Positions 13,625-26,701 of a stretch of DNA of 64,000 nucleotides are shown piece by piece. How positions within the stretch are numbered: position 1 is the stretch's first letter; every line of letters starts with the position of its first letter. The notes under the pieces are model-generated. The model made no database searches. It saw nothing but the letters and a program-made list of their open reading frames with translations, and was not told the origin of the DNA. The DNA comes from Alphaproteobacteria bacterium (lineage in GTDB: Bacteria > Pseudomonadota > Alphaproteobacteria > Bin95), in NCBI GenBank assembly GCA_964291285.2, contig OZ219788.1, positions 315,136-379,135 of the forward strand, in the 5' to 3' direction. A program made the translations under genes and the position numbers.

Positions 13625-16600
13625 TCATGCCGCCCAGCCGGCGGAGAGCTCTTCCGCCTGTTCGAGCACTGTACGGGTTGCCTTTTCCTGCTTGTCGGGC
13701 GGGTAGCCGTGCTTGCGCAGGACGCGCTTGACCAGCCGACGCAGGTCGGCGCGGACACTCTCGCGCAGCGTCCAGTCGATGGTGACGTTGCCGCGCACGG
13801 TCGCGACGAGCTCGCGGGCGATACCGCGCAGGGTCTCGTCGCCGAGCACCCGGACGGCGCTGTCGTTGGTCTCCAGCGCGTCGTAGAAGGCGAGTTCGTC
13901 CTCCGACAGTCCCAACGCCTCGCCGCGCGCGTTCGCCGCGCGCAGGTCGCGGGCCAGCTGGATCAACTCCTCGATCACCTGAGCCGCCTCGACAGCGCGG
14001 TTCCGGTAGCGCCTGAGCGTCCGCTCCAGCATCTCGGCGAAAGAGCGCGCCTGAACGACATTCTTGCGCCGACGGCCGGCGATCTCGCCCTTCAGCAGTT
14101 TCTGGAGAAGCTCGACCGCGAGATTGCGCTGCGGCATCCCCCGCACTTCGGCCAGGAACTCTTCCGACAGGATCGAGACGTCGGGCTTCTCAAGCCCGGC
14201 GGCCGCGAAAATGTCCAGCACTCCCTCGGATGCCACCGACCGCGAGACGATCTGACGGACGGCATGCTCGATATCTTCTTCCGGCCGGGCGCTCCCTGCG
14301 GCGCGTCTGGCGAGCACCGCCCGCACGGCCTGGAAGAACGCCACCTCGTCGCGGATACCGATCGCGTCTTCATGCGGCACGGCAAGGGCGAAGGCCCGGG
14401 ACAGTTCGCGCACCGCCCGCAGGCAGCGCTCCTTGCCGTCCTCCTGGGCCAGGACATGTTCCTGCGCCGCCGGCAGCAGGGACACGCGCTCCGTCGCCGT
14501 GCCGTCGATCCAGCGGCGGCAGTCGAAACCGTGGAACAGGCCACAGCAGACCTCGTATTTCTCCCGCAGGGCGGCCACCGCTTCGGCCTGGTCCGGCACA
14601 CCCCGACCCGTGCCGCCGCTCTCCGTGTAGGTTGCGAGCGCCTGCTTGAGTTCGTGCGCCAGCCCGAGATAGTCGACCACCAAGCCGCCGGGTTTGTCCC
14701 GGAACACCCGGTTGACGCGGGCGATCGCCTGCATCAGCCCGTGGCCGCGCATCGGCTTGTCAATATACATCGTGTGCAGGCTCGGCGCATCGAAGCCGGT
14801 CAGCCACATGTCGCGCACCAGCACCATGCGGAGCGGGTCGCCGGGATCGCGGAACCGTCTGGCGAGCGCCTCGCGGCGCGGCTTGTTGCGGATATGGGGC
14901 TGCCAGTCCGGCGGGTCGGAGGCCTCGCCGGTCATCACGATCTTGATCCGCCCCCTGCCGTCGTCCTCTTCCTCCCAGTCCGGCCGCAGACGCACGAGGG
15001 CGCGATGGAGGTCGATGCAGATACGCCGGCTCGTGCACACCACCATCGCCTTGCCGTCCATCGCCTCAAGGCGGTTCTCGAAATGGTCAACGATGTCCTG
15101 GGCAATGAGGGCGAGGCGGTTCTCCGCGCCCACTACGGCCTCGAGTTGTGCCCACTTCGTCTTGAGCTTCTCCTTGCGTTCGATCTCCTCGCCTTCGGTC
15201 GCCTCCTCGAATTCCGGGTCGATACGGGGCCTTTCTTCTTCGTCGAGGGCCAGCCTGGCGAGCCGGCTCTCATAGTAGATCGGCACCGTCGCGCCGTCCT
15301 CTACCGCGCGTTGGATGTCGTAGATGCTGATATGGTCGCCGAACACGGCGCGGGTGCTGGCGTCCTGCAACTCGATGGGCGTGCCGGTGAAGCCGACGAA
15401 GGAGGCGTTGGGCAGCGCGTCGCGCATGTGGCGGGCGAAACCGTCGATGAAGTCGTACTGGCTGCGATGCGCCTCGTCGGCGATCACCACGATGTTGCAA
15501 CGGTCCGACAATACGGGATGCCGGTCGTCCTTCTCACCGGGGAAGAATTTCTGGATGGTGGCGAACACCACGCCGCCCTGCGCGACCGCCAGCTTCGCCC
15601 GCAGGTCGGCGCGGCTTGCCGCCTGAACCGGCGGCTGGCGCAGCAAGTCGCGGCAGCGGGCGAAGGTGGCGAAGAGCTGATCGTCGAGATCGTTGCGGTC
15701 GGTCAGCACCACCACCGTCGGGTTCGCCATCGCCGGTTCGCGGGCGACCCGGCCGGCATAGAAGGCCATGGTCAGGCTCTTGCCCGACCCCTGGGCATGC
15801 CAGACGACGCCGATACGCCGGTCACCGGGGTCGCCGCCGGGCCGGCGTCCTGATTCGTAGTGGCCCTGGCGGTCGGCAAAACCGTCGGCTCGTTGCAACT
15901 CCGCCGCGCGCAGCGTTTCCGCGACCGCCGTCTCGACGGCGTGGAACTGGTGATAGCCCGCCATCTTCTTGCGGAGCGCGCCGCTGCCGTCGTCCTCGAA
16001 CAGAATGAAGTCGCGCACCAGGGCCAGAAAGCGGCGCCGGTCGCAGACGCCCGCCAGCATCACCTGCAACTGCGGTAGCGCCGGATCGGCCAGCACTTCG
16101 CCGGAGACCGTGCGCCAGGGCTTGAACCACTCCCGCCCGGCGGTCAGTGTGCCGATGCGCGCTTCCACGCCGTCCGAGACGATCAACGCCGCATTCATGG
16201 CGAACAGGGACGGCAACTCCGCCTTGTAGGTCTGCAACTGCTGCCAGGCGGTCCAGAGCGTCGCGTCCTCGTCCGCCGGGTTCTTCAACTCGATGACGAC
16301 GAGTGGAAGGCCATTGACGAACAGCACGATGTCGGGACGGCGCTCGTGCTTGTTCTCGACGACGGTGAACTGATTCGCCGCCAGCCAGTCGTTATTGTCG
16401 GCATCGTCGAAATCGATCACCGCCGCCTGGGCGCCCCGGATCGCGCCCTCCGCATCCCGGTATTCGATGTTGACGCCGTCCACCGCCATCCGTTGGAAGC
16501 CGCGGTTGCGCGCTTCCGGCGTCGTTCCTTCCGGTCGCGTCAGTCTGCGCAAGGCGTCGTCCAGCGCCGCGGCGGGCAGGGCGGGATTGAGCCGGGCCAG

Positions 16601-16762
16601 GGCATCCCGCAGCCGCCCCTCCAGCACTACCTCGCCATAATCCGCCCGCTCGGCCGCCGGCCCGCCGGGGCCGACGTCCGGCCCGGGCACAACGCCCCAG
16701 CCCAAACCCTCCAGCCATTCGAGAGCGGCCTCCTCGACCTCCGATTCGGTGAAGCGGGTCAT
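13625..16762 (-). CDS. hsdR: type I restriction enzyme R subunit HsdR (1045 aa)
   Basis: N-terminal nuclease region ([19 protein letters not shown]), helicase motifs ([18 protein letters not shown]) and C-terminal [16 protein letters not shown]. Confidence 0.92.
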
Positions 16763-26000: not shown

Positions 26001-26701
26001 GCAAGGGCGTCGACCATGTACCCCATGACAGGATCGTCGAGGCTGTAGCCGACGAAGACGACCGAGAATTCGCGAAACAGTTCGGTGACGAACCTCGCCG
26101 CCCAGCGCTCGGTCAGATATGCGCGCCCGAAATCTGCCGCGGTCAGCACCAGGTTCGAGCCATCTTCCTTCGGTGCGATGCGGCCGTGCAGATGCACCAG
26201 GCTCGACCAGGCATGAGGCTTGGGTATCGGAAGCCGGGGCGCGGCATCGACCGTCAGGGATTCTTCCGCCGCTTCGGCAAAGCGGTTGTCGAAATTGGTG
26301 GTAACAAGTCGGACGCCGCTGTCGAAATTGGTGGTAACAGGTCGGACGCCGCGTTCAGTCCGCGACAGCTTGAGCAATGCCTTGTGGAGTTTCAGGTCAC
26401 CGCTTCGCGGTCGAGAAAGCCGGTCGATGACCGCACCCCGCAAGTGGTTCGCGCCCAGGCGGCGTTCCAGAAGCCCGAGCGCCCTGTCCCAGGCCCCGCT
26501 ACATAGCGCTTGCCGTTCGGCGGGATCGGGTTCGATGTGGTTGGCATCATATACATGTTTCACGAGGGCTTTGAAGCTCGGCAGGTCAGACCCTTCTGCC
26601 ATCGAGACCCCGGCGCCGCAGAAGAAAACGACATTGCCGTCGTCCAGCCCGTTCAGGAGGGGCGCCGGAATGTCCGGGCCGTCTTCAATCAGTTCAGGCA
26701 T
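23045..26701 (-). CDS. giant SIR2-like (SIR2_2-type) domain protein, 1218 aa, with a ~950-aa helical C-terminal region of unknown function
   Basis: N-terminal VVFFCGAGVSMAEG...VTTNFD...LVHLHGR...VFVGYSLDDP is the prokaryotic defence-type sirtuin pattern. It is co-directional with, and 218 bp upstream of, hsdM. Confidence 0.8.
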   Translation of the reverse strand: MPELIEDGPDIPAPLLNGLDDGNVVFFCGAGVSMAEGSDLPSFKALVKHVYDANHIEPDPAERQALCSGAWDRALGLLERRLGANHLRGAVIDRLSRPRSGDLKLHKALLKLSRTERGVRPVTTNFDSGVRLVTTNFDNRFAEAAEESLTVDAAPRLPIPKPHAWSSLVHLHGRIAPKEDGSNLVLTAADFGRAYLTERWAARFVTELFREFSVVFVGYSLDDPVMGYMVDALAAERSKGAGFGMAWAFAAMDGSEAGISRARDAWVAKNVEPILYDERDGHRLLADTLIEWARIRSDPLRARSRIAIDEINKMPAGPVVERVVWALQDASAAQALAEAPPMSNEEDHAKFEKWLDMFAEKGLLRSAANGTDRHLVDTGLESVNPYNLDRTRHHLSVWLANHLHVPQLLAWALRNGAHLHPLLRQQVESRLTERASALPDIPDRLRLLWTVLLGSRPDDPWNGLWLSDRHRAAMSPDERRLIEDKVMESIRPRLVVRPGLSMVRQVRLNYENTPQAPQPIDTCGHLELMSACDRVWALFKAILDDREVLSRHAETLTDHLEHALSLGKADGNVYQRSYLYRPSIAPHEQNNDFDNWTRLIDLARDSYLALVPDESRRAYNLLLRWADSEEPLFGRLALHALTENPRADIRLAQKLLLGGRNLGLWDFDMRRETMRFLRLAGKRLPRDLRSDIIDAIHAGPKSNKIRESFGSDEGLRKEQALFLHMLGMSGIKLDKKSRAMAETITQKMEEIEGEIDEFFGEVKYERIGIEDYAPKHLLKGSVEDIVVALDTGEIVQDGLRGLAARKPAEVFSALRQLGKQGKWPAGYWRDFLWELPEPKRPAELHACAARILAEAPGELFGEVASAVAGFVKQLADAWETDREAEFGVLWMKSWVGKGEGESEMADQNETLTNALNHPAGKLAEAALTRLSKYELPAGAGFPPPVRPYFDAMAEDPLGHPGRVLLATRLRPLFAVDAEWTRQHLIARLACLKSQEAVDLWSAYSWSPGLGPDLLKAIRAPFLEILHDDRLEDRRMRRLRDLFMAVCLDAPGDLTEKEIRDVVAPMPEQGLVTVLGSLRRRLTGTPDERQRIWDEKLHRWLCSYWPREQGRNTAKISEAILKMLAECGDAFPQAAEWWLTYLRPVEGSGGVGHSFFVLNRNGCAKQHPEPLLKVLNKVIDVLPDYNKPGLKKLLDALCAGNCGISGDLRFQKLYGIATQ
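26288..26353. repeat. 33-bp in-frame tandem duplication (2 copies, 2 mismatches) inside the SIR2 core
   Basis: GTCGAAATTGGTGGTAACAAGTCGGACGCCGCT is followed by GTCGAAATTGGTGGTAACAGGTCGGACGCCGCG. On the coding strand these give GVRPVTTNFDS and GVRLVTTNFDN. Confidence 0.9.

Follow-up and report, generated by a model that had tools for sequence, protein, structure and literature searches.

Type I restriction-modification (R-M) operons frequently carry embedded genes beyond hsdM, hsdS and hsdR, as do BREX, DISARM and Hma loci, and 96.7% of such genes are co-oriented with their host system (Payne, Hughes, Fineran & Jackson 2024; 10.1101/2024.01.29.577857). Under the principle of 'guilt-by-embedding' these authors took genes residing within BREX, DISARM and type I R-M loci as the source of their PDC set, which includes PDC-M02, with 894 occurrences, and PDC-S23; the PDCs are predicted candidates, and the HEC systems alone were tested. 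We have analysed a 64,000 nt stretch of alphaproteobacterial DNA from contig OZ219788.1 (the window, whose positions serve as coordinates throughout) that contains a block of about 13 kb, 13625-26701, consisting of a gene for a giant SIR2-domain protein resembling Dsr1, hsdM, a small gene designated orf81, a HEPN toxin-like gene, a fusion of an MNT nucleotidyltransferase domain to hsdS (MNT::hsdS), the PDC-M02A and PDC-M02B genes, a PDC-S23 remnant and hsdR. As in the guilt-by-embedding loci, co-oriented extra genes lie between the hsd genes, the cargo here being PDC-M02A/B with the PDC-S23 remnant, and relatives of the locus bear other catalogued cargo (PDC-M24, HEC-01A and SoFic). The window differs from those loci in having two filled slots, one between hsdM and hsdS and one between hsdS and hsdR, and in having a third cargo gene that is pseudogenised.

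A preliminary description of this DNA took SIR2, R-M, HEPN/MNT and DUF4365 together to be one unit with an undescribed architecture. We consider it very likely that the block is instead a mosaic defence island made of three separately inherited layers, each most likely working on its own alongside the others. The first layer is the dsr1-like gene, the product of which would, to judge from homology, deplete NAD+ on phage infection, and which would lie upstream merely because defence genes accumulate. In the second, HsdM2-HsdS would methylate the host site and the complex with HsdR would cut unmodified incoming DNA, while the motifs in both partners indicate that the nucleotidyltransferase domain joined to HsdS probably keeps the HEPN RNase inactive, in the manner of type VII HepT/MntA. 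The third is exchangeable cargo between hsdS and hsdR, here PDC-M02 and the dead PDC-S23 remnant, which probably arrived by recombination through the conserved 3' end of hsdS and 5' end of hsdR. Co-orientation and abutting junctions would then provide cheap co-expression with the R-M genes, as is general for embedded defence genes. Gene content, intactness, the mosaic breakpoints, the recurring core and the varying cargo are seen directly in the sequences; the biochemical activities and the structure of the transcripts are inferred.

The three layers become apparent when the window is aligned with related loci, of which L001-L010 were found via M02B, L011 and L012 are the closest loci found via the MNT::HsdS protein, and L013-L019 are more distant fusion loci and loci of orf81 homologues. 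The two closest relatives, L011 and L012 (94% and 92% identical), retain hsdM-orf81-HEPN-MNT::hsdS and differ between hsdS and hsdR. L011, from a Binatia metagenome-assembled genome (MAG), has 93.3% nucleotide identity to the window over 22830-18856, a stretch beginning 4 nt ahead of the hsdM ATG and ending 70 nt into M02A, and 93.0% over 16761-13630, which is exactly hsdR. Between these stretches the 2.1 kb of the window is unrelated to L011, where 1.9 kb of other cargo with an AAA_15 ATPase is found, and the difference amounts to a clean cassette swap. In L012 the products of orf81, HEPN and MNT::hsdS are 84-99% identical to those of the window and HsdM 66%, and the cargo comprises Peptidase_M78, DUF4411 and a Schlafen/AlbA_2 (SLFN) ATPase. 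The window's own cassette of cargo genes is 87-88% identical to the alphaproteobacterial loci L001 and L007, over a segment that also takes in the final ~70 nt of hsdS. Homology to L002 starts at 22837, 11 nt upstream of the hsdM ATG; in the cassette it reaches through the PDC-S23 remnant, which L002 has in common with the window. Because L011 homology starts only 4 nt before the hsdM ATG, the dsr1-like gene and the 218-bp spacer that follows it lie outside the shared R-M unit. The breakpoints at the start of hsdM, just inside the cargo past the end of hsdS and at the start of hsdR also support the idea of the hsdS-hsdR gap as an exchange slot for defence cassettes.

The conserved core of this lineage consists of hsdM, orf81, HEPN and MNT::hsdS, with a variable cargo slot ahead of hsdR. 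The slot is occupied by PDC-M02B in L004, L013, L014 and L015, by PDC-M24 in L004, L014, L016 and L017, by HEC-01A/AAA_15 in L011 and L019, and by an SLFN ATPase in L012, L018 and L019. By synteny, only orf81, HEPN and MNT::hsdS travel with the R-M genes, and PDC-M02 appears to be swappable cargo that is autonomous of type I R-M; in cyanobacterial MAGs it follows HmaC, and in L003 its neighbour is a type III-like restriction enzyme.

Five of the comparison loci (L011, L012, L015, L016 and L017) come from one ENA analysis, ERZ24894574, and have the same backbone with different cargo. L017 shares its contig with L007, a locus labelled Alphaproteobacteria, and L011 is labelled Binatia. The sharing of a backbone among MAGs of one sample, with about 93% nucleotide identity between L011 and the window, suggests that R-M backbones and cassettes have recently been exchanged within one community.

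The preliminary description had viewed the block as a super-operon, and in its strongest form this reading would make all nine genes one integrated, interdependent and co-selected defence machine. All the genes are co-oriented, several junctions overlap or abut and no terminator is evident, and there are further observations that weigh against a mosaic. L015 repeats the seven-gene R-M and PDC-M02 arrangement of the window at 46-78% protein identity and M02B recurs in three of the nine loci that were not seeded with it, so that PDC-M02 may be functionally linked to this R-M lineage. Scans of the dsr1-hsdM spacer for promoters and terminators gave no signal above chance and the spacer folds no better than shuffled sequence (z = -0.65); as neither element was identified there, read-through from dsr1 may occur. 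The comparison loci, moreover, are mostly long-read MAGs with frameshift errors. However, Dsr1 is absent at every related locus, none of the 14 related R-M loci examined has a SIR2 gene adjoining R-M, and homology breaks at the start of hsdM. Near-identical backbones hold different cargo, PDC-M02 is found in contexts other than type I R-M, one of the supposed members is a dead pseudogene and DSR1 is a proven stand-alone system. Synteny largely refutes the nine-gene machine, as we read it, and we regard that explanation as highly improbable.

What survives of the preliminary description is a co-directional cluster of defence genes around a type I R-M system that is indeed stuffed with extra genes. 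Independence of the inserted genes from hsdMSR holds for Dsr1 and PDC-M02, and does not hold for HEPN/MNT and orf81. The architecture can no longer be called undescribed, as embedding in type I R-M is the subject of Payne et al. 2024 and Dsr1 is represented in PADLOC and NCBIfam.

The features are collected in Table 1. The ORF table confirms the nine minus-strand open reading frames (ORFs) at the coordinates first given to them, profiles from Pfam, PADLOC and NCBIfam agree with the original domain calls (SIR2, hsdM, HEPN, MNT::hsdS, DUF4365 and hsdR), and the length first given for the SIR2-hsdM gap is correct. Run on the proteins, PADLOC identified Dsr1, PDC-M02A/B, the PDC-S23 remnant and the type I subunits. 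Five consecutive overlapping junctions had been reported, of which three are true gene overlaps: HEPN/MNT::hsdS (10 nt), hsdS/M02A (4 nt) and M02A/M02B (1 nt). The other two fall away on revision of gene starts and of a pseudogene. We have corrected the start of orf81 (orf83 in the preliminary description) to the second ATG, at 21219, which gives a product of 81 aa, places it 2 nt past the hsdM stop and leaves no overlap. The HEPN ORF spans 20535-21023, although its likeliest start is the ATG at 20951 (138 aa), 22 nt past the orf81 stop and preceded by the ribosome-binding site GGAAGGG. The 17286/17314 'overlap' is that of M02B with the PDC-S23 pseudogene, and because the intervening ORF is a pseudogene, M02B and hsdR are separated by 523 non-coding bases. 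The abutting and overlapping junctions fit co-transcription, and hsdM through M02B are probably co-expressed.

Table 1. Features of the gene block and of its surroundings in the window
Feature	Coordinates	Strand	Basis or remark
dsr1-like gene (1218 aa)	23045-26701	-	Pfam SIR2_2; PADLOC and NCBIfam Dsr1
Spacer dsr1/hsdM, 218 bp	22827-23044	.	Boundary of shared R-M block
hsdM (534 aa), type I R-M methyltransferase, intact	21222-22826	-	HsdM_N and N6_Mtase; PADLOC MTase_I
orf81, small conserved protein	20974-21219	-	Directly 3' of hsdM in relatives
HEPN toxin-like gene, HI0074/NTase_sub_bind type (138 aa)	20535-20951	-	Pfam NTase_sub_bind
MNT::hsdS fusion (539 aa)	18925-20544	-	Polbeta and Methylase_S; PADLOC Specificity_I
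MNT part of fusion	about 20242-20544	-	
HsdS part of fusion, two target recognition domains	about 18925-20226	-	
PDC-M02A, DUF4365 nuclease (166 aa), cargo gene 1	18428-18928	-	Pfam DUF4365; PADLOC PDC-M02A
PDC-M02B, 380-aa partner, cargo gene 2	17286-18428	-	PADLOC PDC-M02B
PDC-S23 remnant, frameshifted and doubly truncated	about 16881-17278	-	Two ORFs matching PDC-S23 profile
hsdR (1045 aa), type I restriction/translocase subunit, intact	13625-16762	-	HSDR_N (N-terminal nuclease), SWI2_SNF2 (SF2 motor), T1R_D3-like, T1RH-like_C (C-terminal)
RTX-repeat protein	2025-4460	+	
IS21 istA/istB	5435-7251	-	
IS66 transposase	8214-9770	+	
DDE_Tnp_1 transposase	9846-11159	-	
Tyrosine recombinase 1	11220-12395	+	Tandem with next; pair converges on hsdR
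Tyrosine recombinase 2	12399-13544	+	
TrwC-type relaxase/helicase	27126-31434	+	Split into two ORFs
Second giant sirtuin (1227 aa)	38902-42585	-	Full-length Dsr2; PADLOC 2.9e-276

Both enzymatic subunits of the R-M system match their families strongly. HsdM contains the Pfam domains HsdM_N and N6 adenine methyltransferase (1.1e-27 and 3.5e-102) and matches PADLOC MTase_I at 4.7e-216, while HsdR matches PADLOC REase_I with E = 0 (residues 3-1041 on profile positions 4-1023 of 1029) and scores 559 bits against TIGR00348, above the cut-off of 284. The type I R-M system is intact by these measures and belongs to a widespread lineage, and it is predicted to be active in methylation and restriction. 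The small orf81 has homologues in 230 cluster representatives at E<=1e-3, mostly of ~80 aa and aligned from query residue 3, and an exact 81-aa match to its product exists in the database. It lies directly 3' of hsdM in L011, L012, L015, L017, L018 and L019, and does so in L018 even though HEPN and MNT are absent there. The protein has an invariant DGYE..D motif, and it has no match in Pfam, PADLOC or NCBIfam; its structure model is of moderate quality (pLDDT 71), and no structural match to it was found.

The HEPN protein matches Pfam NTase_sub_bind (3.6e-21) and NCBIfam HI0074 (2e-13, 50.4 bits as compared with a cut-off of 55.8). It has the Rx4H motif R99-INTS-H104 followed by Y106; among 11 homologues R99 is invariant and H104 is nearly invariant. 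The Tyr two residues after the His is conserved too, and Tyr106 is a candidate AMP acceptor. The fusion protein is encoded in one frame with no stop between the Polbeta/MNT domain (aa 14-100, with the Pfam Polbeta match at aa 21-100) and a complete HsdS (aa 107-537). Its MNT domain has the GSx10DxD motif as G34-S35-x10-D46-I-D48 and scores 34.8 bits against NCBIfam MntA_antitoxin, under the cut-off of 60, and the HsdS part matches Pfam Methylase_S and PADLOC Specificity_I (3e-112, residues 107-537 on profile positions 2-444 of 446). An N-terminal GSx(9-12)Dx[DE] motif is present in 104 of the 120 best HsdS homologues, and in 97 of those 104 a nucleotidyltransferase Pfam domain occurs together with Methylase_S; the length of the interdomain linker varies among the fusion homologues. 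In all ten fusion loci (L004, L011-L017, L019 and Zymomonas mobilis pZMOB01) HEPN lies directly upstream of MNT::hsdS, with the stop and start codons overlapping.

Two of the fusion loci, L004 (5407-8462) and L013 (7724-10617), contain two tandem HEPN-MNT pairs, a free MNT in the leading pair and an hsdS-fused one in the other; in L004 a SoFic gene lies between hsdM and the first HEPN. The G+C content of the window over 19000-21000, which covers HEPN and MNT::hsdS, is 0.54-0.55 as compared with about 0.67 elsewhere, and the G+C content at third codon positions (GC3) of these genes is 0.61-0.65 as compared with 0.86 in hsdM and hsdR. Such low G+C would fit a part of foreign or fast-exchanging origin, despite the conserved synteny.

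The same core is found in minimal operons that lack cargo. On pZMOB01 of Zymomonas mobilis ATCC 10988 the order is hsdM-HEPN-MNT::hsdS-hsdR, the fused gene being annotated merely as 'subunit S', and on a plasmid of Acetobacter ascendens LMG 1590 unfused HEPN, MNT and hsdS genes occupy the same position of a type I R-M operon. HEPN thus directly precedes MNT or MNT::hsdS in these operons as it does in the window, although the proteins are only about 31% identical, no orf81 is annotated and hsdR follows directly after hsdS. Zymomonas ZM4 has a very active plasmid-borne R-M system with a viable hsdSp deletion (Lal et al., PMC8432527); its HsdSp is a candidate MNT::HsdS fusion, the ZM4 plasmid itself not having been found in PLSDB. 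If zmop32x027/028 is such a HEPN and MNT::HsdS pair, the viable deletion would speak against a HEPN that is toxic constitutively.

The closest described counterpart of HEPN and MNT is the type VII HepT/MntA system (the HI0073/HI0074 pair), with which the window shares a HEPN Rx4-6H motif with a nearby Tyr, the MNT motif GSx10DxD, and adjacent overlapping genes. The differences are that the antitoxin is here an N-terminal domain of HsdS and not half of a free-standing two-gene module, that the toxin gene comes first, and that the scores are under the NCBIfam equivalog/subfamily cut-offs. One explanation, which we judge possible without favouring it, is that HEPN/MNT is an ordinary type VII toxin-antitoxin (TA) pair stabilising the R-M operon or the mobile element against loss, in which case the fusion would simply lock the pair to hsdS and have no phage-sensing role. 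This agrees with HEPN-MNT pairs being classical TA modules (PMC3632139), with the recombinases, relaxase and insertion sequence (IS) elements of the mobile element on which the island is placed, and with the unfused version at the same operon position in Acetobacter. However, addiction antitoxins are normally labile and free, whereas here the antitoxin is part of a stable structural subunit, and a role connected with R-M is suggested by how strictly the fusion keeps to type I R-M and how broad the fused family is.

Such a function could be that of a built-in sensor of R-M integrity, a proposal that refines the second layer, is compatible with a mosaic, and that we put forward tentatively, as somewhat unlikely. 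In this model the HsdS-tethered antitoxin domain would keep HEPN AMPylated or bound on the M2S/R2M2S complex, and a phage anti-restriction protein that disables or dismantles the complex would free HEPN and bring about abortive infection, as PrrC does with EcoprrI. The conservation of the fusion, the position of HEPN as its immediate upstream neighbour in every case, the retention of catalytic motifs in both partners (GSx10DxD, and Rx4H with the Tyr two residues past the His), and the occurrence of fused (Zymomonas) and unfused (Acetobacter) forms within type I R-M operons all argue for it. HEPN RNases within R-M operons and the guardian role of PrrC are well established, and the nuclease of PrrC is likewise a HEPN domain that is held latent by its host R-M system (PMC3710099; PMC12707154). 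The parallel with PrrC-EcoprrI, in which a HEPN anticodon nuclease resides in a type IC R-M system, is that both type I hsd operons contain a HEPN-family RNase gene and that a physical tie to the R-M complex is plausible, in the window by way of a partner domain fused to HsdS. The HEPN protein of the window is nevertheless no member of the PrrC family, being of 138 aa with a single NTase_sub_bind domain and without the ABC-ATPase of PrrC and RloC, which in PrrC would be the sensor domain; its neutralising partner would be a nucleotidyltransferase domain and not the R-M complex itself. Also against the proposal, literature searches of available text found no study of an MNT::HsdS fusion, the MNT and HEPN profile scores fall under NCBIfam cut-offs, and a fusion could arise and persist merely from the overlap of two genes.

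Turning to the cargo, M02A matches Pfam DUF4365 (9.3e-20) and, over its full length, PADLOC PDC-M02A (8.3e-53); DUF4365 is a RecB/Mrr-like PD-(D/E)xK nuclease (PMC6299218). The highly conserved M02B matches PADLOC PDC-M02B over its full length (2.6e-115) and has no Pfam match, and its 988 homologues include none that is named and none with a Pfam domain. The AlphaFold2 model of M02B is poor (pLDDT 59.9); with this model, Foldseek had no PDB match at E<=1e-3 and yielded just weak OB-fold-like ones, and profile searching of PDB sequences was equally without a meaningful match. Literature searches by name found no paper with text describing PDC-M02. M02A adjoins M02B and is co-oriented with it in L001-L003, L005-L008, L010 and L015, and throughout the M02B-found loci L001-L010 it lies directly upstream of M02B wherever both are detected, with no SIR2 gene near. 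In L004 (9190-11125) and L014 (10626-13001) M02B occurs without the DUF4365 gene, directly after a PDC-M24-type pair (DUF6978 with DUF1828/1829). The dependence of M02B on the DUF4365 nuclease may not be strict. The PDC-S23 remnant is spread over two frames, in which ORF 16853-17314 matches profile positions 153-234 and ORF 16836-17228 matches positions 230-283.

DSR1 is defence-associated sirtuin 1 (Gao 2020; Garb et al. 2022). It works as a single cloned gene, and Bacillus DSR1 gives phage-triggered NAD+ depletion (10.1101/2021.12.14.472415). Like DSR1, the window protein is one large polypeptide with an N-terminal SIR2 domain (Pfam SIR2_2, 4.5e-20, residues 132-274) followed by a long C-terminal region, and it matches the Dsr1 profiles from end to end, that of PADLOC at 4e-169 (residues 4-1215 on positions 3-1238 of 1248) and that of NCBIfam with 682.7 bits. 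It differs in that the latter score is under the equivalog cut-off of 1400 and in that it is only 27-29% identical, over 97-100% of the length, to dsr1 products annotated by PGAP. We take it for a divergent full-length member of the Dsr1 family and thus a putative single-gene defence module. Its GC3 is 0.69 as compared with 0.86 for hsdM and hsdR. Annotated dsr1 loci on three plasmids are all without hsd neighbours and have no neighbours conserved in common, and a metagenome scan found no close Dsr1 relatives.

The dsr1-like gene has an in-frame 33-nt tandem duplication (91% identical) close to its 5' end, at 26282-26347, that gives an 11-residue repeat. The second giant sirtuin of the window aligns end to end with NCBIfam Dsr2 at 945 bits, again under the equivalog cut-off of 1400, so that the island holds predicted NADases of both the DSR1 and the DSR2 type about 12 kb apart.

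The preliminary description placed the genes on a mobile island, and this is borne out by the TrwC relaxase on one flank and, on the other, the two tyrosine recombinases and the IS21, IS66 and DDE-family elements. With a relaxase, integrases, IS elements and Dsr2 around it, the block is part of a defence island on a mobile element. An 804-aa minus-strand ORF at 11214-13628 that overlaps the hsdR stop, and so resembles a tenth gene of the operon, was rejected as a GC-shadow ORF (G+C at first codon positions, GC1, 0.82 > GC3 0.68); because it is the shadow of the two recombinase genes, the block ends at hsdR. Searches of the whole window revealed no tRNA genes and no Rfam RNA family, a search of PLSDB found no close DNA relative of the window, and no convincing attachment site or cassette border emerged from a search for repeats.

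Two of the flanking elements have features of their own. The TrwC-type gene is split by a 61-bp insertion (29210-29270) bounded by a perfect 30-bp direct repeat, and removal of the 61 bp in silico restores a single relaxase ORF of 1415 aa; either a duplication has recently inactivated the gene or the long-read assembly is in error here. The two recombinase genes, of the phage-integrase family, share a 43-nt stretch of 93% identity (11941-11983 and 13078-13120).

Taken as a mosaic, the locus is a clear example of defence-island assembly, and it supplies natural contexts for the candidate PDC-M02. It is no new kind of system: its organising principle is published and every component is catalogued; for HEPN and orf81 PADLOC has no model. 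What novelty remains lies in the core of HEPN and MNT::HsdS as a possible self-guarded R-M system, the fusion being the least-studied feature. MNT::HsdS with its obligatory HEPN is common in genomes, where it is annotated just as 'restriction endonuclease subunit S', and it would offer a simple, genetically tractable case for asking whether TA modules can be wired into R-M complexes as guardians. A tentative suggestion, one we would not yet call likely, is that type I R-M systems with HEPN and MNT::HsdS form an unstudied but widespread self-guarded class. In these a type VII antitoxin domain would be a covalent part of the specificity subunit, and phage attack on the R-M complex, or its loss, would unleash the HEPN RNase as an abortive-infection back-up. 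If this is so, they would solve the same problem as PrrC by another mechanism, and the self-guarded lineage would have orf81 and the cargo slot between hsdS and hsdR as additional conserved traits.

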